A DNA stretch of 36,583 nt from a virus (Duplodnaviria; Heunggongvirae; Uroviricota; Caudoviricetes): IMG/VR virus record IMGVR_UViG_2585427727_000016. One strand, 5' to 3'. Below are positions 10,318 through 36,583 of the stretch, piece by piece. The notes beneath the pieces were generated by a model. That model worked only from the letters and a program-made list of their open reading frames with translations, made no database searches and was not told where the DNA came from. Numbering within the stretch: position 1 is the stretch's first letter; the number at the start of each line of letters is the position of its first letter. A program made the position numbers and the translations under genes.

Positions 10318-10881
10318 ATGCTGAATAATAGAGATATGAATATTAATGAACTTAAAGACTGTATTCACTATGAAGTAATCGGTAGCGAGCGTCCTTTCTC
10401 CTGGCGAAAGGCAATTGTTCGCGCAATAAAACATAGAAGACTTCGTTATTTATTTTGGTGGCGCATAGCCAAATACCTTTTTGATAAAGGCGGATACTGT
10501 CGGAAGATTGCGGGGAAAATAGAACGTTTCATTCTTGATAAATATAATGTAACAGTCCCTTTAACTGTAAATATAGGGAAAGGTTTTGATATTTCTTATC
10601 TCAACAGTGTTGTTATCGGTCACAAAGTAACAATCGGTGAAAATTGTTCAATAAAACCGGGGGTAACTATTGGGCTACGTGGTGATTTTAATGATATGGA
10701 TATTGTTATAGGACATAATGTGACCATTGGTTGTAATGCCACCATTCTTGGTGGCAAAGTGCGTATAGGAAACAATGTCACAATAGGTGCTCATGCATTG
10801 GTATTGCATGATATTCCTGATGATTCAACATTCATCACTAAATTTCAGTCTGAAGTTATCTGCTCGTCCTCCCGCACATAA
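10318..10881 (+). CDS. hexapeptide-repeat (left-handed beta-helix) acyl/acetyltransferase; cargo at the Z/fun position
   Basis: repeated [LIV]-G-x-x-x-x hexapeptides ([21 protein letters not shown]...[34 protein letters not shown]); strongly AT-rich compared with flanking phage genes; start codon uncertain. Confidence 0.7.
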
Positions 10882-21875: not shown

Positions 21876-23627
21876 ATGATTCAGGACGCTTTTGTGCGCC
21901 AGCGTGCGCGGCAACTTTACTGGCAGGGTTATCCGCCCGCAGAAATATCACGTCTGATGGGAATAAACCCGAACACGGTTTATGCGTGGAAAAAACGCGA
22001 CCAGTGGGATGAAACGCCACCCGTGCAGCGTGTCACGCAGTCCATCGATGCGCGCCTCATCCAGCTTACTGAAAAACAGAATAAAACAGGCGGTGACTTT
22101 AAGGAAATAGACCTGCTGACCCGGCAGCTTAAAAAGCTGCATGATGGCCAGCCGGATGTGATGGCCGCAGGAAAGAAAGGCCGGGCGAAAAAACTCAAAA
22201 ATCATTTCACGCCGGAACAGATTGCCGCACTGCGGGAAAAAATCATCAGCAGGCTGGAGTGGCATCAGCGGGGCTGGTTTGACTCCCTGACACTTTGCAA
22301 GGAAGCCGGGATACGTAACAGGATGATCCTGAAATCCCGACAGATTGGGGCGACCTGGTATTTTGCACAGGAAGCTCTGCTGATGGCGCTGCGTGACGAT
22401 GTGGCGCAACCTTACCAGCGTAACCAGATTTTTTTGTCTGCGTCGCGTCGTCAGGCGTTCCAGTTCAAAAGCATTATTCAGAAGGCCGCGGCTGAAGTTG
22501 ATGTGGAGCTGAAAGGGGGCGATAAAATCATCCTCTCCAACGGTGCAGAGCTGCATTTTCTCGGCACTTCTGCTGCGTCGGCACAGTCCTATACGGGCAA
22601 TTTTTATTTTGATGAATTTTTCTGGGTCAGTCGCTTTGCTGAACTGCGCAAGGTGGCTGGCGCTATGGCAACCCTCAGCGGACTGCGGCGCACCTACTTC
22701 TCCACGCCATCCACCGAAACGCACGAGGCATACGCCTACTGGAACGGCGACCGCTGGAACGAGAAAAAGGCCACGCATAAACGCCAGCGTTTTTCTGTGG
22801 ACTGGAAAACGCTGCATAACGGGCTTATCTGCCCTGACCGGACGTGGCGGCAAATTGTCACGCTGGAAGATGTGGTTAATCACGGCTGGAAACACACCGA
22901 TATTGACGAAATTCGTGATGAAAACACCGAAGACGAGTTCCGCAATCTCTATATGTGTGAGTTTGTCCGCGAAGGGGAATCGGCATTTAACCTGAATATC
23001 CTGATTGGCTGCGGTGTTGACGGATACGACGACTGGAAAGACTGGAAACCTTTTGCTCCCCGCCCGATGGGGAATCGTCCGGTATGGATTGGGTATGACG
23101 CAAACGGCAGCAGTGGCAACGGCGACAGCGGCGCTGTGTCCGTGGTGGTTCCTCCGGCTGTTCCTGGTGGCCGTTTTCGAACGGTGGAGACGCGACGCGT
23201 TCAGGGGCTGGAGTTTGAAGAACAGGCCAGAGTCATTGAAGAGTTCACGTGTCGCTACAACGTGGAACACATCGGCATTGATGTGACGGGCGGGAACGGG
23301 GAGGCTGTTTATCAGATAGTGAAACGGTTTTTCCCTGCTGCTATTCCGTACACCTTCACGCTGTCATCAAAACGGTCGCTGGTACTGAAAATGCTGCAAA
23401 TAATGCGTGCCGGGCGGTGGGAATACGATCGCGCCGAACGCGAGCTGGTCGCGGCCTTTAACGCCGTGCGTAAGGTGAAAACACCGGGCGGTTTTATCAC
23501 TTACGAAACGGACCGTGCGAGGGGGATCAGCCACGGCGACCTTGCGTGGGCAACCATGCTTGCTGTCATTAACGAACCAATTGGCGGCGAAGGGGAAAAC
23601 GAGCGTTTTACGGTTATGGAGTTCTGA
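21876..23627 (+). CDS. P: terminase large (ATPase) subunit P
   Basis: 583 aa; divergent from O; P2 P-like. Confidence 0.9.
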   Translation: MIQDAFVRQRARQLYWQGYPPAEISRLMGINPNTVYAWKKRDQWDETPPVQRVTQSIDARLIQLTEKQNKTGGDFKEIDLLTRQLKKLHDGQPDVMAAGKKGRAKKLKNHFTPEQIAALREKIISRLEWHQRGWFDSLTLCKEAGIRNRMILKSRQIGATWYFAQEALLMALRDDVAQPYQRNQIFLSASRRQAFQFKSIIQKAAAEVDVELKGGDKIILSNGAELHFLGTSAASAQSYTGNFYFDEFFWVSRFAELRKVAGAMATLSGLRRTYFSTPSTETHEAYAYWNGDRWNEKKATHKRQRFSVDWKTLHNGLICPDRTWRQIVTLEDVVNHGWKHTDIDEIRDENTEDEFRNLYMCEFVREGESAFNLNILIGCGVDGYDDWKDWKPFAPRPMGNRPVWIGYDANGSSGNGDSGAVSVVVPPAVPGGRFRTVETRRVQGLEFEEQARVIEEFTCRYNVEHIGIDVTGGNGEAVYQIVKRFFPAAIPYTFTLSSKRSLVLKMLQIMRAGRWEYDRAERELVAAFNAVRKVKTPGGFITYETDRARGISHGDLAWATMLAVINEPIGGEGENERFTVMEF

Positions 23628-24673
23628 TGAGCAGAAAAAATAAAAAAGTGCGTATGAGTTCACGCATTGATCTCGCTGATGCGCTCAGGAAAGAATCGTC
23701 GCTCAGTGCATTCACATTTGATGGTCCTTATCGCCTGACCGGGCATGATTTGCTGGACAATATGTACTGTGCTGATAACGGGCGGTGGTATGAAACCCCG
23801 GTGGACTGGTACGGTCTGGCAAGAGCTGCCCGGCAAACGTCCTGGCATCAGTCTGCGCTTTACTTTAAGCGCAATGTATTGCTCGGTTGCTATATTCCGC
23901 ACCCGCTGCTTTCCCGGCAGGATTTCTCGGCGCTGGCGCTGGACTGGTTTGTGTTCGGTAACGCATTTCTTGAGCTTCGAAGCAATATGCTCGGCGAACC
24001 GCTTAAATTACGGCACGCCCTGGCGAAATACATGCGACGCGGAAGCGATCTTGAATCATGGTGGTATGTTCAGGATGGCAAGGATGCGTTTCAGTTTCGC
24101 CCTGGCAAAGTGTGCCACCTGATGAATCCGGACATTAACCAGGAAATTTACGGCATGCCGGAATATCTTGGCGCATTACTCTCGGCCAGCCTGTCTCATT
24201 CGGCGGACATGTTCAGAAAACTGTATTACGACAATGGATCCCACGCCGGGTGCATCATCTATATCGGTGCAGCGCAGGTAAACCGCGAAAGCATGGACTC
24301 CCTGAAAGAAACGTTACAGGGTGCGCGTGGTGGTGGTGCGTTTAAAAACGTGCTCATCCATGCGCCCAACGGGGGCAAAGAGGGGGTGCAAATTTTGCCG
24401 TTCCAGCAGATCACCGCAAAAGATGAGTTCATGAATGTTAAGGCGGCATCCCGTGATGATGTGCTGGCTGCGCACCGTGTTCCACCGCAACTGATGGGGG
24501 CGATGCCGGGCGAAAAAAGTGCGTTTGGTGATGTGGAGAAGGCCGCGCGGGTTTATGCAATTAACGAGCTGATGCCCGTTATGGAGGCCATGAAGCACAT
24601 CAATGACTGGCTTGGCGAAGAGGTGATCCGTTTTAACTCTTATGCTCTTCTTGATGAAAAAACAGCCCCGTGA
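23627..24673 (+). CDS. Q: portal protein Q
   Basis: 348 aa; start overlaps P stop; P2 Q-like. Confidence 0.9.
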   Translation: MSRKNKKVRMSSRIDLADALRKESSLSAFTFDGPYRLTGHDLLDNMYCADNGRWYETPVDWYGLARAARQTSWHQSALYFKRNVLLGCYIPHPLLSRQDFSALALDWFVFGNAFLELRSNMLGEPLKLRHALAKYMRRGSDLESWWYVQDGKDAFQFRPGKVCHLMNPDINQEIYGMPEYLGALLSASLSHSADMFRKLYYDNGSHAGCIIYIGAAQVNRESMDSLKETLQGARGGGAFKNVLIHAPNGGKEGVQILPFQQITAKDEFMNVKAASRDDVLAAHRVPPQLMGAMPGEKSAFGDVEKAARVYAINELMPVMEAMKHINDWLGEEVIRFNSYALLDEKTAP

Positions 24674-24690
24674 TTGGGGCTGTCCTTTTT
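24663..24690. terminator. bidirectional intrinsic terminator between Q and the convergent orphan gene
   Basis: CAGCCCC-GTGATT-GGGGCTG hairpin flanked by an A-run upstream and a T-run downstream. Confidence 0.7.
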
Positions 24691-25213
24691 ACCAGAGTTG
24701 AACCATTTTCTGGGTGCCGTCAGGCTTGAGATTATCAATTTCAGAGAGAACGTAATATTGAATGGCTTCACAAACGGTGGTGTATGGTGAATTACCTTCT
24801 TTAAGTGGCACGATATTATTATTAACGCGAACCTGTATTTCATCGTTATACATTGCGATCGAAAGAGGAGTATGCACGAAGGCGACTTCGCCAGGTGTGT
24901 CGTCAACCACTGTCTCAATGCTGAAAATCAGTTTTCGCTCATCATTGCCGCCCCTTGCTTTGGGGGTAGCGGCAGGAATCTGAGATAAAGGCATTCTGCG
25001 AAACCCTTCAGTTGTTTCCAGTCCGCATGAAACGTAATGCTGGCGATTACCGTCGCTATCCGTCCATGTCTGTGATGGCAGCTCCAGAGAGATTTCATAA
25101 GCATCAACAATTCCCTGGGCAATTCGTACAAGTGGGGTCAGGTCTTCATTGCGGCGAAAACTCTCCTTTACCTGATCTCGTTTTTCTCGTAACTGCTTGT
25201 AATTAATGACCAT
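24689..25213 (-). CDS. hypothetical protein, hotspot cargo (174 aa)
   Basis: clean ORF with GGAGG RBS 8 nt before ATG at 25213; own promoter region and terminator; no motif recognised. Confidence 0.6.
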   Translation of the reverse strand: MVINYKQLREKRDQVKESFRRNEDLTPLVRIAQGIVDAYEISLELPSQTWTDSDGNRQHYVSCGLETTEGFRRMPLSQIPAATPKARGGNDERKLIFSIETVVDDTPGEVAFVHTPLSIAMYNDEIQVRVNNNIVPLKEGNSPYTTVCEAIQYYVLSEIDNLKPDGTQKMVQLW

Positions 25214-25312
25214 AAAACAGCCTCCATTGATTTCTTTGCTCGTATTTTGCACTTATGAAGTGTGGTCGGCAAGGTGCCGCATCACTGACGCGCTTCGCTT
25301 GTCTGCTGCTTC

Positions 25313-25341
25313 GCCGGGGCATAAAAAATTTATGCCCCGGC
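25313..25341. promoter_or_regulatory. 29-bp near-perfect palindrome (candidate operator) about 100 bp upstream of the 174-aa gene
   Basis: GCCGGGGCATAAA-AAA-TTTATGCCCCGGC read directly. Confidence 0.4.
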
Positions 25342-25741
25342 TCTCCAGCTCCTGTATCAATCAGATAATTTCACGACGCCTTCCAGTTTATCGCCACCAT
25401 CGACGGTCAGACTCTTACGCAATCCCACTACGTTGACTGTATGTTCTCGCTGCCTCAGTGCGATTTTGACGGCCTTACCTTTCACCCCATCAAATCAAAA
25501 GCCCTCACGCCTTTTTCATGCTCAGCGTGAGAAATATGGCCATTCTGTTGTGTCTCTGCGACATCGTTCAGGGAATGCTATTTACCCCCTGAAACGCGGG
25601 CTGTTCCCCCGTCACCTGCGCGTAGAAAAAACGCGTTTTTTGTGCACGTACGGATCCTTGACGGATCCAGCCGCCACGCGGGCCGGAAGTACAAAAAGTC
25701 GTTCAAAAAAATTGTGCAAACTTGTGCACTATCGTGCAAAC

Positions 25742-25766
25742 AAAAAAAAGCGCCTTATCGGCGCTT
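25742..25766 (-). terminator. intrinsic terminator after the 89-aa gene
   Basis: minus-strand hairpin GCGCC-GATAA-GGCGC followed by a run of 8 U. Confidence 0.7.
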
Positions 25767-25774
25767 CAAAAATA

Positions 25775-26044
25775 TCAATTGTTGCTGTGTATTAATCGCC
25801 AACCACGAACATATGCTTCATAAGCATCTCTGTGCCTTACAGTTCCAGCCTGGCTAAACGGAATGTTAGCTAAAACTAAATCATTCTGAGCCATAGCGCG
25901 TCCTTCAAGCGCATCTTTTATGCCTAGCTCAAAAGCACAGGCAGCGCATTTGTGCCGACCTTCTTGTCCTTGATATTCAGGGAGAGACAGAAATGTTGGG
26001 TTATAACGATGAGGGTTCTTGCAAATACCTGTTTTAGCCCGCAC
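25775..26044 (-). CDS. hypothetical protein, hotspot cargo (89 aa, GTG start)
   Basis: ORF with GAGGT RBS before GTG at 26044 and its own terminator; single CAAC motif; function unknown. Confidence 0.45.
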   Translation of the reverse strand: MRAKTGICKNPHRYNPTFLSLPEYQGQEGRHKCAACAFELGIKDALEGRAMAQNDLVLANIPFSQAGTVRHRDAYEAYVRGWRLIHSNN

Positions 26045-26174
26045 TTTATTTACCTCATAGGAAAAATATGCGTGCCTTTACAGAGGTGCGTGTAAGCAAT
26101 AAAATATACGACGCACATTTTGATTTACTTCGGAAGGCACGCATATCAGGTTAAGTGAGTCCGACCGAGTTCTA

Positions 26175-26207
26175 CGCCCCAATAGTTGCTGCTATTGGGG
26201 CGTTTTG
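26175..26207 (+). terminator. strong plus-strand intrinsic terminator with no annotated plus-strand gene upstream
   Basis: 11-bp GC-rich stem CGCCCCAATAG-TTGCTG-CTATTGGGGCG followed by TTTT. Confidence 0.6.
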
Positions 26208-26408
26208 CATGGACAATGCCGCGCAATTATCTTGTCGCTCACAATGCGAACGATCTTACAAAAAGGCACATTACTGTCAAGATAATTGATCGTTTTAATC
26301 GATAGATAATAGACAATCTATTTGTTTAACAGATCGATTATTGAAGTAAGTGCGCCAAATGGAATGATACTGTTTCTATAAATGTGAGCATTTTTCGCGC
26401 AGATGCTT

Positions 26409-26720
26409 TTACTCAGGAAATAACGCCCGGATATTCCCAGCCATCTGGCTGGTTATCTTAGCCACTGGTGCAGACTGTGCTTCAAACTTTTTTGAGCTGA
26501 TTTGTGTCACAGGTAACATCTCATCATCAGCCCATGCGGCCAGTCGGTAAGCCTCTGCCGGATTCGTCTTCAGAAGTGCCAGCCCGGCCAGAAAAGCCAC
26601 GCGTTGGCCGCTTTTGCGGGCTTCTGGTGTAAGGCTGTCCAGCCAGGCGCATGCTTCTCCTTCGTTCTTGACGGCAGCTGGCTTCAGATAGAAACTTATT
26701 CTTCTGGTTGGTGTCGTCAT
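26409..26720 (-). CDS. parR: ParR/StbB-like centromere-binding adaptor
   Basis: 103 aa; RISFYLKP...LDSLTPEARKSGQRVAFLAGLAL resembles the ParR N-terminal ribbon-helix-helix region as I remember it; AAGGAG RBS; 4 nt after the parM stop. Confidence 0.65.
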   Translation of the reverse strand: MTTPTRRISFYLKPAAVKNEGEACAWLDSLTPEARKSGQRVAFLAGLALLKTNPAEAYRLAAWADDEMLPVTQISSKKFEAQSAPVAKITSQMAGNIRALFPE

Positions 26721-26724
26721 TGGT

Positions 26725-27684
26725 TTACTCCTTGTTCATTGCGTACAGCCCATTAACCAGAGCAAAATGTGGCACCCCGTCCGTGATGAAAGTCGCATTA
26801 ACTCCGCAGGCTTCGCGGATAGCGGGTGCCACAATCTCCGCCCCTCCACCGACAACCATCACCCGCCCGTAACCGGAAAAACCCGCCAGCGCGCGGATCA
26901 CTCGTTGTTTCAGTGTCTCCTCCTTTTCACGAATAACCGCCATCAGGCTGTTGTAATGCGCGTCATTGTGAATGTGCTGGCGCAGCCAGGCTTCATCGTG
27001 ACGGTGCTCAATAATGGTATTGGCGATGTGGTGACTGGTACGCATACCGTTAGTGGCCATCACCGACAGCACGGCATCAGCCATCAGGGAAACGCCTACG
27101 TGTGGATCGCAAAACACCTGGCTGATACCTGCCAGCTGCCCCTGAACCTTTGCCACATCCAGCGTGGTTCCGCCCAAATCCACAATCAGCAGGGATTCAA
27201 ACGGACTCATGTCAGCCAGTGCCTTAAAGCCAGCCGGAATGGATTCAGGCATAACCCGCACGTTACGGATAGTGAATGCTTCGCCGTTCTGGTACTCCAC
27301 CGGGCGCATAACGTTCGCTTTTTTGCGGTTGATGTTGGCTATGTCCGGCTGTGCGTTTGTGTCGAAATACTCGCTCAGTGGCAGGGTGACAACCACATCC
27401 ACCTCCTGTGGCGTGATGCCTGATTTGACCAGCGCGTGATGAATGGCAATGACATTCACATCACTGTACTGGTATTGCGTGTCGGTCGTCTGGACAAAGC
27501 GATCGCTGACCGGATCAAAACCATAGCGCACGCCATCAAGCATGTAGTTCGCGGGCTGCGTGCCACCGAACGGCGCAGACCATTCCGACTTGAAGCTGTT
27601 CGGGCTGATGGCGTTGCGGCGTTCGCCGTTCTCAGTCCATGCCAGCTTGATGTTGGTGGAGCCGTCGTCGATACAAATTTTCAT
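26725..27684 (-). CDS. parM: ParM/StbA-family actin-like ATPase
   Basis: 319 aa; MKICIDDGSTNIKLAW...ISPNSFKSEW and YSDVNVIAIHHALVKSGI closely match the ParM N-terminal phosphate-binding motifs I remember from plasmid R1. Confidence 0.8.
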   Translation of the reverse strand: MKICIDDGSTNIKLAWTENGERRNAISPNSFKSEWSAPFGGTQPANYMLDGVRYGFDPVSDRFVQTTDTQYQYSDVNVIAIHHALVKSGITPQEVDVVVTLPLSEYFDTNAQPDIANINRKKANVMRPVEYQNGEAFTIRNVRVMPESIPAGFKALADMSPFESLLIVDLGGTTLDVAKVQGQLAGISQVFCDPHVGVSLMADAVLSVMATNGMRTSHHIANTIIEHRHDEAWLRQHIHNDAHYNSLMAVIREKEETLKQRVIRALAGFSGYGRVMVVGGGAEIVAPAIREACGVNATFITDGVPHFALVNGLYAMNKE

Positions 27685-27713
27685 GTCGCTTTTCCTTATG
27701 TTGATTAATTAAT

Positions 27714-27827
27714 CGTTTACGGGATTCTGAAATCCCGTTTTTGCCTGTTTTTTGCGCGCTTCATATATCGCTGCGCGTTTTTTGCTCATTTACGGGATTC
27801 GTGAGTCCCGTTTCTGTCTGTTTTTTG
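27714..27827. repeat. two tandem hairpin-containing direct repeats of about 40 bp (candidate centromere or terminator-like elements)
   Basis: 27714..27754 and 27787..27827, each ACGGGA(TT)-loop-(AA)TCCCGT followed by T-rich CTGTTTTTTG; first copy intergenic, second inside the 3' end of gene A. Confidence 0.6.
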
Positions 27828-30583
27828 TTTCCACTGGTCAGGCCACCCTGCAGCAGGTCTGCTTTGCGGCTGGCGCGTTCAGTGGTTTCACTGATTCTCT
27901 GTGCGTGCTCTGCGTCGCGGATGGCGCGCAGCATGTCAGAAAGCACGGTAACGGGTGTTTTCATGGTGTTCTGATCCTGCTGAAGTGCGGATGCCAGGCG
28001 TGCGGCGGCTTCGGGGTCTGATGCCCCCAGCTGTGCCAGATAGCTGGCGACCGGGTTATGGCGGATCTCCGTGCTGCTTACGCCGTGATTACGGCTCAGG
28101 TGCTGCCAGAGCTGCGTGATTCGGCTGTCCGTGCGGGTATCCGGTTTGCGTACAATTTCATATCCCTGCGGTGCAATGATGCTGCCGTCAACGTACAGGC
28201 TGCCGCCCCGTAGCAGGTGCTGCGTCTGCTGTTCACCGATATGCAGGCCGAGAGATTCGGCAGACTCCCGCCATTCTTTAGCGAGTAATTCGTGGTTATC
28301 AGGCAAAGGCCGCTGCTGTTTGCGGCTCTGTGTCCAGCTCTGCATTTCATCACTGCTGTTTTTTGCCTGTTTGTCACGAAGCGAACGCATCAGCGCCCGG
28401 CGTTCGTGCCGTTTCAGTGAGCGCATCCATTCGTTCACTTCAACGCCGTCAGGAAGCTGCGGCCACGGTGCTGGCCGTTCTTTCGACTGTTCTGTCCCGC
28501 TGTTGCCTGTTTCCTGTACACGGGGACAGTTATTGCCACGAGTCCAAGGGGCGGCAGGGCCGCCCTGAAGGTCAAAACCATTTTCGCGGGCGCTGTCTTC
28601 CGCTTCCGGTTTACGTCTTACCAGCTTCCAGTTATCCGGATGTGTGCACACACGGGAAGACTCCCCGATGAGTGGTGACCAGATCCCGTAAATCTGTACG
28701 CTCTGTTCGCCGTAATCGTTCAGCTCATCTGCGAGGTCGTAGGCGGTGCGAATCAGGTAGTCTTTGCGTGGAACAAGTACGCCGCCCTGTTTTTCAATGT
28801 AGGAGGCAAAACACCCGGCATCAGCGGCAGCGAGCACTGCATCCATTGCGTCATCCTTCAGCTGTTGCGGGCCTTCCGGGTTGCGTGCCATCTGGCTGGC
28901 AAGGCGGCGCAGTTCACGCCACACCTGACGGGAGGGGATGCCAAAGAACTGGAACTGGCGGACCCGGTGAAGGCGCGCCCAGCCGATGGCGCGCTCCACG
29001 CTCTCGGCCATTGATTTTCCGGTTTCGTGGTCAACGCGTGGCTTGCCCGTTTTCGGGTCGATACCATCCACGGCGCGGCTGTCCAGGTTCTTTCCGATGT
29101 AGGTGGCGATGTAGCTGGTCGGTGTGCCTTTTGAGCCGTCGACGTACTCTGCCTTAAAGCGTGGGGTAATATCATCACCCAGCTCGTGACGATCTTCCTG
29201 AATGGCAATATCGCGGGTGTGGGACACAATGGTGTCGATTTCTTCCGGATGAGCAAAGACCATCATATGCCAGTGCACGGTGCCGTCATGGTGAGGCTCC
29301 ACCGTGCGGATGCCATACCAGCGCAGGCCGTCGCGGTTCAGTTTCTTGCGGACCGCCGCAAAAAACGAGTTAACCAGGTAATCGCTGGAGTCGCGCATAG
29401 TGGCCCCGTTCCATTTGGGATTCGGATGACCGTTCTCCGTTGTTGCGTGGTATTTTGACGGGCAGGTGACAGTCAGAAACACCGCTCTGTCGCCACGGGC
29501 TTCGGCCAGAAGTTCCAGCCCCTTCATGGTGGCCATCATTTCTGCCTTACGGTGAACCGGGTTACTTACTCCCGCGTAATACACTGTCTCAAGATCAATC
29601 GTGAACCCGTCTTCGTTTTCCAGCATGAAACTTTTCAGGAAATCGCGTGTTTTCTCGCGCTGTGCGCGAAACTCGCTTAACGCATCCTGGCTCAGATAGG
29701 GCGATGTTTTTCTGGAAACCAGACAGGCGGCGCGGAGTTGTTCTTCTCTCCACTCGCAACGTAACAGCCACAGTTTGCGTTTCCACCATTCCGTACAGGT
29801 CAGGCGAAGGATTGCGCCCGGCAGCAGCTCCGTGTCTGGTTCGTTCCTCCGGCCTTTGTCTGTTGTCAGTGCGTCATAATGCGGAGGCATGGCGTGCAGG
29901 TGTAACGCCATGCGGGCCAGCATCTGATACGCCTTCAGCGTTACATCCATGGTCAGCTCGCCATCAGTCGCACCAAAGCCATCGCAGAGTTTTTCGAAGG
30001 TGCTGCTGAACATCGCCGCCGTCATGGTGGCCAGCGTCTGTATCTGGTGTTTGTTGAGCTGCGGCAGGTAAAGCAAATCGTCCAGGCGTTCGCGTCCGGC
30101 AAGGGAGCGATAACCCGGTGTCAGCCAGTGTCCGTCAGTGCGATCCAGACGTTCGAATATTTTGCGCAGGGTTCCGCGTGCATAGCGTTCCGCCTGCCAG
30201 CTCTTTTTGCCTTTCCGGCGATCAGCTTCCTGTTTTTTGCGCAGGAAGGAGAGGTGGCGAATAAGCGGATCGCGCAGATAGGACGGCAGCAGGCGCAGCG
30301 AGGCCATGGCTTCATCCACCGCGCCGCGTGCCTGTTTTCTGGCGTCTCCTGCCAGTGTGATGGTTTTGTCCTGTTTTTCCTGTGCGTCCAGGCTTTTATT
30401 AATCAGGTTGCCCAGCGGCGTGGCGGAGAACGCCGCATCAGCCATTTCCTGGCGGCGCTCGTTCTCTACCCGGTAGGCACCCAGCCAGGAGGAAAGCGCG
30501 GATTCAGGAGCGGGGATCCCCGTTCCTTCACGCCCCACTGCGTGGCGCGGTTGTTGCCAGTCCCTGATGTACTCTGCCGTCAT
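27761..30583 (-). CDS. A: replication initiation protein A (rolling-circle HUH endonuclease)
   Basis: 940 aa; HUH-like motif (VHWHMMVF) and catalytic Tyr motif (YIATYIGK) typical of P2-family gpA. Confidence 0.9.
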   Translation of the reverse strand: MTAEYIRDWQQPRHAVGREGTGIPAPESALSSWLGAYRVENERRQEMADAAFSATPLGNLINKSLDAQEKQDKTITLAGDARKQARGAVDEAMASLRLLPSYLRDPLIRHLSFLRKKQEADRRKGKKSWQAERYARGTLRKIFERLDRTDGHWLTPGYRSLAGRERLDDLLYLPQLNKHQIQTLATMTAAMFSSTFEKLCDGFGATDGELTMDVTLKAYQMLARMALHLHAMPPHYDALTTDKGRRNEPDTELLPGAILRLTCTEWWKRKLWLLRCEWREEQLRAACLVSRKTSPYLSQDALSEFRAQREKTRDFLKSFMLENEDGFTIDLETVYYAGVSNPVHRKAEMMATMKGLELLAEARGDRAVFLTVTCPSKYHATTENGHPNPKWNGATMRDSSDYLVNSFFAAVRKKLNRDGLRWYGIRTVEPHHDGTVHWHMMVFAHPEEIDTIVSHTRDIAIQEDRHELGDDITPRFKAEYVDGSKGTPTSYIATYIGKNLDSRAVDGIDPKTGKPRVDHETGKSMAESVERAIGWARLHRVRQFQFFGIPSRQVWRELRRLASQMARNPEGPQQLKDDAMDAVLAAADAGCFASYIEKQGGVLVPRKDYLIRTAYDLADELNDYGEQSVQIYGIWSPLIGESSRVCTHPDNWKLVRRKPEAEDSARENGFDLQGGPAAPWTRGNNCPRVQETGNSGTEQSKERPAPWPQLPDGVEVNEWMRSLKRHERRALMRSLRDKQAKNSSDEMQSWTQSRKQQRPLPDNHELLAKEWRESAESLGLHIGEQQTQHLLRGGSLYVDGSIIAPQGYEIVRKPDTRTDSRITQLWQHLSRNHGVSSTEIRHNPVASYLAQLGASDPEAAARLASALQQDQNTMKTPVTVLSDMLRAIRDAEHAQRISETTERASRKADLLQGGLTSGNKKQTETGLTNPVNEQKTRSDI

Positions 30584-34758: not shown

Positions 34759-35046
34759 TTAAAGCCCCAGCCACAACAACCATGCATCGCGGCGTTCTTT
34801 CGGCTGATCAAAAAACGCTTTGCGCATACCTGCGTTAAATGCTGGCAGATATACCCAGTTTTCTGATGCTCGCGTCTTCACTGAACCTGGTTTTACAAAG
34901 TCAATCGTTGGTAACTTTGCAGCGTCAATCATGGTTCTGACGGTTGATTCTTTGCGACCAATCATCTTGGCAAATAGTTGATATGGCACCGCTTCAAGTG
35001 GATATGGTGCTACCTGAATGAACCCCTCAAGCTCTGATTCGCTCAT
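34759..35046 (-). CDS. cox: Cox (excisionase / early regulator)
   Basis: 95 aa; VPYQLFAKMIG...WVYLPAFNAG...WLLWLGL resembles P2 Cox; divergent from C. Confidence 0.8.
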   Translation of the reverse strand: MSESELEGFIQVAPYPLEAVPYQLFAKMIGRKESTVRTMIDAAKLPTIDFVKPGSVKTRASENWVYLPAFNAGMRKAFFDQPKERRDAWLLWLGL

Positions 35047-35161: not shown

Positions 35162-35482
35162 ATGATCCATAAATCAAGCCTTGGAGAAAAACTTCGCCTG
35201 ATTCGAGAGGCAGAGGGATTGTCACGTAGAGAGATGGAGGAGGTGACAGGGGTATCTCAATACAATCTCAAAAATTATGAAATATTGGGAAGAATGATAC
35301 CTGGAGAAACGTTACTCCTGATTTTGAATCATCCTCGTTTTCGGAAGTATTCGGATTGGGTGATGTTTAATCAAACTAATGCTGCGACGGGGCAGATTGC
35401 TCCGCCTCTCTCTCTTGATGGCTTCTTCGATTCGGAGGGCGATCAGGTTTCAACCGAAACAAACCAAAAATCACCCCGCTAA
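35162..35482 (+). CDS. C: immunity repressor C
   Basis: EKLRLIREAEGLSRREMEEVTGV...GQIAPPLS resembles P2 C; start at 35144 or 35162. Confidence 0.8.
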   Translation: MIHKSSLGEKLRLIREAEGLSRREMEEVTGVSQYNLKNYEILGRMIPGETLLLILNHPRFRKYSDWVMFNQTNAATGQIAPPLSLDGFFDSEGDQVSTETNQKSPR

Positions 35483-35578: not shown

Positions 35579-36583
35579 ATGTCAATTAAGAAGCTCGAAG
35601 ATGGTCGTTATTTGCTGGACATCAGGCCGAACGGACGCAAGGGAAAGCGCGTGCGTAAGGTATTTGACAAAAAATCGGTAGCGGTGGCCACTGAACGCTA
35701 CATCATGGCGAACGCTGAAAAGCGGGAATATATACAGGGCTACCGTGATCGCCGAACGCTAAATGATTTGCTTGAGTTGTGGTGGATGTATCACGGTCAA
35801 CACAGGCGTAAGGCGGAAGAAGACCGAAAACAACTGTGCAACATAATCAATGAGCTTGGCGCTGATATGCAGGCTGTGGATCTTGATAAGCTGAAAATTA
35901 TCGCGTGGCGTTCTCAAAAGATAGCTGCTGGATTGAAACCGTCATCTGCTAACAGGTACATGAATCGGTTATCCGGAATGTTTACCGTGCTGAAAAAAAT
36001 AGGTCTTTGGGATGCAGAACATCCAGTAAGGGGAATTTCTATTCTTTATGTATCTCCACGAGAAATGGCGTTCCTGTCACAGAAGGAAGTGGCGCTATTG
36101 CTCGATACACTGGAGGGTGACTACTGGCGTGTTGCGCTTTTGTGTTTAAGCACAGGGGCGCGCTGGAGTGAAGCTTGTAAGCTTCGTGGTGAACAGATAG
36201 TTCATAACCGTGTAACGTTTCTTGAAACCAAAAATGGCCGGAAGAGAACGGTGCCAATTTCACAGGCGGTTTGTGAGGCGATCAGAACCAGAGAAACAGG
36301 CAACTTGTTTGAGGTGAAGTACCGGGAATTCTGCCTGGCGCTGAAAAGGGTTAAGCCCGATTTGCCAAAAGGCCAGGCTGCGCATGTGCTGCGGCATACG
36401 TTCGCCAGCCATTTTGTGATGAACGGAGGAAACATTATTGCGCTTCAGAAGATTCTTGGCCACGCAACCATTCAGCAAACAATGGCATATGCACATTTTG
36501 CACCGGATTACCTGCAGGATGCGGTGGCCCTTAATCCGCTGAAAGGTGGCGTGAGTGTCCACGCAGTGTCCACGGGGGATTAA
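35579..36583 (+). CDS. int: tyrosine integrase
   Basis: about 334 aa from ATG with GGAGGG RBS (ORF track starts at a TTG at 35564); C-terminal R...HxxR...Y catalytic pattern (AHVLRHTFASHF...MAYAHFAPDY); ends at window edge. Confidence 0.9.
   Translation: MSIKKLEDGRYLLDIRPNGRKGKRVRKVFDKKSVAVATERYIMANAEKREYIQGYRDRRTLNDLLELWWMYHGQHRRKAEEDRKQLCNIINELGADMQAVDLDKLKIIAWRSQKIAAGLKPSSANRYMNRLSGMFTVLKKIGLWDAEHPVRGISILYVSPREMAFLSQKEVALLLDTLEGDYWRVALLCLSTGARWSEACKLRGEQIVHNRVTFLETKNGRKRTVPISQAVCEAIRTRETGNLFEVKYREFCLALKRVKPDLPKGQAAHVLRHTFASHFVMNGGNIIALQKILGHATIQQTMAYAHFAPDYLQDAVALNPLKGGVSVHAVSTGD

Follow-up and report, generated by a model that had tools for sequence, protein, structure and literature searches.

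An R1-type ParMRC segregation module beside the replication gene of a P88-like prophage

Why should an integrating phage carry the partition genes of a plasmid? The question is raised by the stretch of 36,583 nucleotides analyzed here (IMG/VR virus record IMGVR_UViG_2585427727_000016; the whole stretch is called the window below), a P88-like prophage (genus Xuanwuvirus, Peduoviridae). Between its replication gene gpA, the homolog of gene A of phage P2, and its portal gene, the homolog of Q, lie two genes that resemble parM and parR of plasmid R1. Our analysis indicates that these genes and the repeats upstream of them are very probably a genuine type II (ParMRC, R1-type) DNA segregation cassette.

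The module is already known: it has been annotated and remarked on before, in a prophage lineage that is very common. In an analysis of 18,150 gpA-gpQ intervals, Rousset et al. (2022) reported that approximately a quarter of P2-like phages have a putative partitioning system, perhaps permitting plasmid maintenance, and their supplementary tables contain hundreds of entries with StbA and Plasmid_stab_B arrangements (PMC9122126). In the paper on phage PhiSM, the gene is given merely as a 'fitness' factor (PMC6456863). The existence and frequency of the module and the hypothesis of an episomal state have therefore been published already; our analysis adds the phage ParM clade, the synteny in five genera, the downstream cargo, the selection on both genes, the geometry of the two upstream sites and the lack of a match to defense models. 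A preliminary description of the window had held that its proposal would fall if the module were an already characterized, common element of this lineage. This objection largely holds, in that the module is common and catalogued in the lineage, so far at the level of annotation.

The parM and parR genes and their upstream repeats

The product of parM was covered over its full length by the Pfam profiles StbA_N (residues 1-157; 3.5e-82) and ParM C-terminal domain (residues 159-316; 2.5e-67), which extends the likeness to ParM/StbA beyond the N-terminus for which it had been claimed in the preliminary description. Residues 2-316 aligned with the crystallized ParM of R1 (PDB 1MWK; E value, 3.5e-92), a protein of equal length, with an identity of approximately 50% in the HMMER alignment and approximately 46% by tblastn, and PHROG 691 ('partition protein') matched at 1e-89. 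The phosphate-1 (IDDGSTNIK), catalytic (MPESIPAG), phosphate-2 (DLGGTTLD) and adenosine (GGGAE) motifs were all intact. ParM is an actin-fold ATPase that retains its nucleotide-binding and hydrolysis motifs, as expected of the ATPase of a type II partition system. The gene was intact in 79 of 80 IMG/VR loci, and the ratio of nonsynonymous to synonymous polymorphism (pN/pS) among 63 distinct alleles was 0.06.

The start codon of parR, at 26720, follows the stop codon of parM (26725-26727) after a gap of 4 nt, and both open reading frames (ORFs) lie exactly at the coordinates that had been claimed for them. The ParR-like nature of the second product was also borne out, with matches to PF10784 (Plasmid_stab_B) at 9.8e-24 and to PHROG 2515 (again 'partition protein') at 2.3e-59. 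A profile built from phage and plasmid ParRs, including that of the window, found the ParR (StbB) of pB171 (PDB 2JD3; 1.9e-13, residues 6-103), which implies that the proteins belong to the same ribbon-helix-helix adaptor family; the window ParR alone, used as a sequence query against PDB chains, found nothing. A small StbB-family adaptor, the product of the gene directly after parM, is the second component expected of a type II system, and ParR fits this description.

Comparison of 28 ParR alleles revealed two invariant regions: R6-P14 (R-R-I-S-F-Y-L-K-P, a strand region that is followed by helices) and the C-terminal tip N-I-x-x-x-F-P (N96-I97 and F101-P102), which was aligned with the C-terminus of R1 ParR (KKNAMKLIN) in our multiple alignment. 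In the tip (the last 13 residues), the pN/pS ratio was 0.06, compared with 0.15 in residues 1-62 and 0.53 in the linker, and 75 of 76 parR copies were intact. These values indicate that parR, like parM, is under purifying selection, and the tip, which is both conserved and strongly constrained, is the predicted ParM-binding peptide. A ParR without the ParM-binding C-terminus was also considered, since the ending ...LFPE resembles an internal motif of R1 ParR, and was dropped because the multiple alignment pairs the tip with the C-terminal end of R1 ParR. The AlphaFold2 monomer model of ParR (confidence score pLDDT, 58) contained helices at residues 20-61 and 86-100 and a disordered linker.

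Two repeats of 42 nt, which are 83% identical to each other, were found upstream of parM, and each contains the palindrome ACGGGA-N8-TCCCGT. This core occurs exactly twice in the window, compared with 0.04 occurrences expected when up to one mismatch is allowed. The proximal palindrome is located 35-54 nt 5' of the parM ATG and the distal repeat within the last 22 codons of gpA, so that the pair straddles the gpA stop codon (27761-27763). The preliminary description had noted 'tandem hairpin repeats' at the position of a parC centromere; the repeats are real and do lie upstream of parM, but they are dispersed rather than tandem, with the two copies 73 bp (approximately seven helical turns) apart and the distal one inside gpA.

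The 170 nt upstream of parM were also scanned for self-similarity at each lag, genus by genus, with 200 shuffles as the control. The top lag was 73 bp in Escherichia coli (24/30 matches, exceeding all 200 shuffles), 72 bp in Plesiomonas (21/30, also exceeding the shuffles) and 73 bp in Hafnia (19/30), and it started 131-143 nt 5' of the ATG in all three. In the alignment of this diverged region from the three genera, the invariant columns were GGGA...CCC in the distal site and CGGG...CCC in the proximal site, and the motif ATTAAT(C/T)AA between the proximal palindrome and the ribosome-binding site was kept as well. The sense strand upstream of parM is A/C-rich, like R1 parC. Counts of AAAC iterons reflected this compositional likeness and were discarded as too unspecific to define iterons. 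An Rfam scan of positions 24500-28200 gave just one sub-threshold match, to sar. Together, these features make the repeats a credible parC-like site to which ParR would bind. They are not the replication origin, because the probable origin lies elsewhere (approximately 28525-28560).

Position and inheritance of the module

The 1.6-kb parMR region of the window is 94-97% identical to that of phages P88, 520873, 503458 and P884B11 and Citrobacter phage PhiSM, and 100% identical to prophage copies in many RefSeq E. coli chromosomes. In those chromosomes, the Prokaryotic Genome Annotation Pipeline (PGAP) names the products 'plasmid segregation protein ParM' and 'plasmid partitioning/stability family protein', and in a RefSeq chromosome with a 100% identical region the int gene of the prophage abuts pdxB. 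Pfam matches to the flanking genes (Table 1) confirmed the first description: the prophage is P2-like and has an integrase, and the module lies between its gene A and its portal gene Q.

GpA of the window is longer than A of P2 (940 and 761 amino acids, respectively), with 31% identity across 645 amino acids. The homology stops near residue 706, and the remaining approximately 230 amino acids are a C-terminal extension whose last codons form the distal parC-like repeat. The nick site of the P2 origin is annotated inside A in the P2 record, and its sequence, GCCGCGCCTCGGAGTCCTGTCAATAACTGT, and that of the window, GCCGCCCCTTGGACTCGTGGCAATAACTGT, are in register by the alignment of the GpA proteins. 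The exact P2 nick-site sequence had no match in the window at up to three mismatches, and the site was found via the protein-guided alignment alone. This segment, approximately 0.75 kb from the repeats, is the probable replication origin, judging from its likeness to the annotated P2 site.

The equivalent interval in the P2 record reads A-orf91-tin-old-cos, in agreement with the preliminary description. The strand and position of parMR are those of orf91, a gene of the early operon; P2 tin and old, in contrast, lie on the opposite strand and have their own promoter. In the window, parM starts 76 nt after gpA in the same direction. Our scans of the minus strand found no terminator between gpA and parM and no convincing sigma-70 promoter before parM. 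Given the common direction, the short distance and the lack of a terminator and of a promoter of its own, parMR is most likely the distal part of the early operon. The 19-nt cos sequence of P2 had no match in the whole window at up to three mismatches; the cos of the P88-like lineage differs from that of P2.

A search of 5.8 billion proteins with ParM returned proteins of E. coli at 92-100% identity, followed by those of Plesiomonas (63%), Hafnia (61%), Serratia (58%) and Enterobacter (54%), and next by plasmid ParMs at approximately 50%. In P2-like phages of the last four genera, the genes are ordered gpA, sometimes one or two small ORFs, parM, parR, variable genes and portal; the gpA-parM-parR synteny is thus kept in five genera, Escherichia included. 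ParMs at 48-50% identity were located in an integrative and conjugative element (ICE; Dickeya) or an integrated plasmid (Mangrovibacter). In a neighbor-joining tree, which was midpoint-rooted, has no support values and is indicative only, the phage-context ParMs formed one clade (16 of 107 tips), and the ParMs of R1, IncI plasmids, ICEs and integrated plasmids fell outside it. At least 5000 plasmids in PLSDB carry a ParM relative; six of them have a copy at 95-99% identity, which is prophage material, and the others, numbering at least 4994, are below 60%. These comparisons argue that the phage ParM is not a recent import from plasmids. The module is best read as an accessory to the replication module, inherited vertically in the P88-like branch of P2-like phages.

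The preliminary description had treated the module as part of the variable cargo of the A-Q interval, a view that did not hold. ParM was 97-100% identical to that of the window in all 80 IMG/VR loci, whereas the interval from parR to the portal gene ranged from 1.0 to 3.4 kb in 55 IMG/VR loci, which together with the window fell into 28 sequence clusters. Since ParM is constant and the interval varies, the hotspot proper begins after parR or within its 3' part. By this comparison parMR, fixed downstream of gpA in five genera, is the conserved, gpA-attached edge of the A-Q interval and not its cargo. In phages 569R5 and 705R2 and one ST131 prophage, nucleotide similarity to the window ends approximately 55 bp into parR (approximately 26666). 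There are many ParR alleles (42-98% identity), which differ mainly in the residues of helices 1-2 and in the linker; ParM is at least 92% identical. The variable hotspot seems to have its recombination boundary within parR.

The two cargo ORFs of the window match PHROG 3941 and PHROG 5091, both of unknown function. The 89-amino-acid ORF (PHROG 3941, 6e-49) is preceded by a promoter-like TTGACA-16-TAAGAT (26280..26253, minus strand) and followed by a strong terminator-like hairpin (25767..25747), which gives this stretch the appearance of a self-contained moron cassette. At 26282-26341, immediately upstream of the promoter-like site, an AT-rich, imperfect inverted repeat of 26 nt (73% complementary) with the nested arms TAATCGAT and ATCGATTA may be an operator. 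The 1.2 kb from 25253 to 26408 is without PGAP annotation in a RefSeq chromosome that has a 100% identical parMR region. Downstream of parR, the Serratia locus encodes a HicA/HicB toxin-antitoxin pair and a Y1 transposase, and the Enterobacter locus a KAP-family NTPase, consistent with the defense and addiction cargo that has been reported for the hotspot.

Away from the A-Q interval, the window encodes a hexapeptide-repeat acetyltransferase of 187 amino acids (10318..10881, plus strand; Hexapep, 1.1e-12) amid the tail genes. A serine acetyltransferase is annotated at this position in a related RefSeq prophage, and the gene is likely a lysogenic-conversion moron.

Table 1. Coordinates of the module and of other features in the window
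Feature	Position	Strand	Basis or remark
parM, 319-amino-acid actin-fold segregation ATPase	26725..27684	-	Pfam, 1MWK, PHROG 691
parR, 103-amino-acid adaptor (N-terminal DNA-binding region, variable linker, conserved C-terminal tip)	26409..26720	-	PF10784
Proximal parC-like repeat	27713..27754	-	Palindrome ACGGGAT-N6-ATCCCGT at 27719-27738
Distal parC-like repeat	27786..27827	-	Palindrome at 27792-27811, inside 3' end of gpA
gpA, replication endonuclease, 940 amino acids, directly upstream of parM and co-directional	27761..30583	-	PF05840, 6e-130
Probable origin nick site inside gpA	28525..28560	-	Likeness to annotated P2 nick site
Variable cargo segment between parR and portal gene	24674..26408	-	ORFs 25775..26044 (-), 89 amino acids, and 24689..25252 (-), 187 amino acids
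Portal gene (Q homolog), right boundary of A-Q interval	23627..24673	+	PF04860, 8.3e-18
cox	34759-35046	-	Pfam Phage_Cox, 1.2e-22
C-type repressor gene	35162-35482	+	Helix-turn-helix families
int, tyrosine integrase	35579-36583	+	Phage_integrase, 1.1e-22

Possible functions of the module

According to the preliminary description, an integrating phage should not need a partition system. A counterexample is provided by CGP3, an integrated prophage of Corynebacterium glutamicum, in which the actin-like AlpC and the adaptor AlpA serve the efficient replication of the excised phage DNA (PMC4446434). AlpA binds repeats upstream of its own operon, alpAC are early genes, and the deletion of either alpA or alpC leaves half as much circular phage DNA after induction (PMC4446434). 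By analogy, the best explanation for the cassette of the window, which we hold with moderate confidence, is that it moves circular phage DNA while that DNA is extrachromosomal, in the manner of AlpAC.

P2-type replication yields circular phage genomes. ParM and ParR would be made alongside the replication proteins from the distal part of the early operon, and ParR dimers would load on the bipartite centromere-like site near the origin. The C-terminal tip of ParR would then capture ParM-ATP filaments, and insertional polymerization would drive the ParR-bound DNAs apart. The cassette would act when the genome is an extrachromosomal circle, either after infection or after induction. Replicating monomeric circles would be separated and positioned, which would favor replication and packaging, and both daughter cells would inherit the phage before integration. 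What we infer in this scheme is that ParR binds the repeats, that filaments form, when the genes are expressed and how the phage benefits.

Several points weigh against movement of circular phage DNA by the cassette. The candidate centromere consists of two palindromic sites, whereas R1 parC consists of two clusters of 11-bp direct iterons. The upstream regions of Serratia and Enterobacter are arranged differently from those of the other three genera, with long arms as an inverted repeat and a top lag of 93 bp; the two have the core AAAAA(C/T)GGGAAC in common. A Foldseek search of PDB with the low-confidence ParR monomer model gave no match, although so weak a model is uninformative on the fold because the ribbon-helix-helix forms only in the dimer. 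The timing of expression was read from weak consensus scans alone, and a ParR-autoregulated promoter may be active in lysogens. The advantage of segregation in a cell bound to lyse is not obvious, and the effect of AlpAC is just approximately twofold. Finally, our literature search on phage ParM returned mentions at the annotation level and no functional study.

An alternative that we consider unlikely is that P88-like phages persist as low-copy circles, that is, as facultative plasmid prophages whose inheritance is ensured by ParMRC; the mechanism would be the same, with another timing and purpose. The idea, which the preliminary description also raised, is not new (PMC9122126). Of 5426 complete E. 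coli genomes, 1304 contained the parMR region (743 of them at a coverage of at least 80%), some in up to three copies, and 1450 of its 1452 places were chromosomal. PLSDB (72,556 plasmids), where true phage-plasmids abound, yielded a single circular record of phage size and a single 26.8-kb 'plasmid' record that matched in part, so that the module is nearly absent from it. The phage-sized record (NZ_CP148288.1, from the cat E. coli isolate Z1323PEC0009) is a complete circular 'plasmid' of 34,461 bp that contains an entire P88-like genome including int, and the same phage, 100% identical over 25 kb, is integrated in the chromosome of a sister strain, the human isolate Z1323HEC0067 (NZ_CP148378.1). 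The record may represent a true episome or an excised circle, as could arise by spontaneous induction.

P2-type replication requires the cis-acting A protein, which is expressed from a repressed early operon, and an immune lysogen should therefore not replicate an episome. In addition, all sequences that extended as far as the int end (the window, Plesiomonas and the circular record) encoded an integrase as well as the module. The module is located not on an autonomously replicating low-copy replicon but in a chromosomal prophage beside pdxB. With one circular record compared with approximately 1450 chromosomal copies, an integrase and replication by a P2-type gpA, the lineage does not resemble phage-plasmids of the P1, N15 or SSU5 type. 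A single phage-sized circle is thus what speaks for an episomal state, and stable plasmid lysogeny looks rare.

It is doubtful at best that P88-like phages are facultative phage-plasmids, which would either integrate at attB or, where attB is occupied or absent or in a prolonged carrier state, remain as low-copy circles stabilized by ParMRC. If this were true, a quarter of E. coli strains would have a P2-type phage capable of a second, hidden kind of lysogeny, and a centromere would have been placed beside a rolling-circle origin. Two CP-accession records, 'Escherichia phage 520873' and '503458', resembled episomal assemblies; phage 520873, the only one of the two that was inspected, was ruled out as an episome, since its record was excerpted from a chromosome and contains host yecA and IS100. 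This record (NC_049344.1/CP025923.1) is the RefSeq 'complete genome' of the phage, which serves as the exemplar of a Xuanwuvirus species. The sequence begins in host yecA, its integrase, gpA and tail genes are split, and IS100 lies in the sheath gene.

We assign little probability to a function expressed in lysogens, in which parMR would have its own ParR-autoregulated promoter and would act either on parC within the integrated prophage or on other replicons, perhaps altering the segregation of chromosome or plasmids or making ParMRC plasmids incompatible. The parC region of R1 contains an autoregulated promoter. With this precedent, the operator-like position of the proximal palindrome, the conservation of ATTAAT(C/T)AA in three genera and the multiple copies of the region in some genomes would agree. 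However, our scan revealed no sigma-70-like promoter on that strand, and the orientation and position of parMR are those of the P2 early gene orf91 and not those of lysogenic-conversion genes. Cross-talk with plasmid systems is also unlikely, since ParM is approximately 46-52% identical to plasmid ParMs and ParR approximately 24-34% identical to R1 ParR.

That the two hairpin repeats are intrinsic terminators of the plus strand, or sites for another phage protein, is very unlikely. On the plus strand, the scans marked both as terminator-like, with an 8-bp stem followed by a T-run, but no credible plus-strand gene reads into them. In Plesiomonas and Hafnia, moreover, only 3-4 bp of the stem and nothing of the T-run are left, but both the GGG/CCC cores and the spacing of 72-73 bp are kept; a site for protein binding explains this pattern better than an RNA hairpin does.

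A role in anti-phage defense or exclusion, co-opted from a partition module as the preliminary description had also suggested, is extremely unlikely: the A-Q interval is a documented anti-phage hotspot (PMC9122126) and the neighboring cargo of relatives includes HicAB and the KAP NTPase, but neither ParM, ParR nor the two downstream ORFs matched any model in PADLOC-DB v2 (E value, <= 0.01), the module is the constant part of an interval whose true cargo varies downstream, its inheritance with gpA is deeply vertical, and the catalytic motifs of ParM and the tip of ParR are all retained, as in a working segregation machine.

As far as the sequences indicate, an R1-type actin-like segregation machine is present in the chromosome of approximately one quarter to one seventh of sequenced E. 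coli strains. It is kept under strong purifying selection and is linked to a phage replication gene across enterobacterial genera. Knowledge of its role, whether in organizing circles, in an episomal state or in the lysogen, would shed light on the handling of DNA by P2-type phages in the cell. Placing parMR at the conserved edge also refines the delimitation of the A-Q 'defense hotspot'.

Comparison with known systems

The element described by Rousset et al. is the same as ours (StbA and Plasmid_stab_B between gpA and gpQ), and their estimate of a quarter agrees with the 743-1304 of 5426 genomes found here. In their study it was one of the 'systems' of the hotspot and was not analyzed further, whereas here it is described as a conserved, gpA-linked edge with a candidate parC and a ParM that belongs to a phage clade.

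The AlpC/AlpA/alpS system of CGP3 resembles the module in that a prophage encodes an actin-like ATPase and a DNA-binding adaptor, with repeats located 5' of the operon; the likeness considered here is one of architecture. The two differ in that AlpC belongs to a different actin-like family and showed no dynamic instability, alpA precedes alpC, and CGP3 is a cryptic prophage of a Gram-positive host.

ParR (StbB) of pB171 is related to the window ParR by the profile match to 2JD3, with a structural model too weak to confirm a common fold. Compared with ParMRC of R1/NR1 (StbA/StbB/parC), the module is found on an integrating P2-like phage, after the rolling-circle initiator gene gpA, whereas R1 is a theta-replicating plasmid. 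The iteron clusters of R1 parC flank a promoter, whereas the module has 42-nt repeats, one of which is inside a coding region, and its ParR is shorter than that of R1 (103 and 117 amino acids, respectively), with a truncated linker. The order parC, parM, parR is nevertheless the same in both, as are the length and motifs of ParM, and the ParRs belong to the same Pfam family, with a homologous N-terminal region and C-terminal tip.

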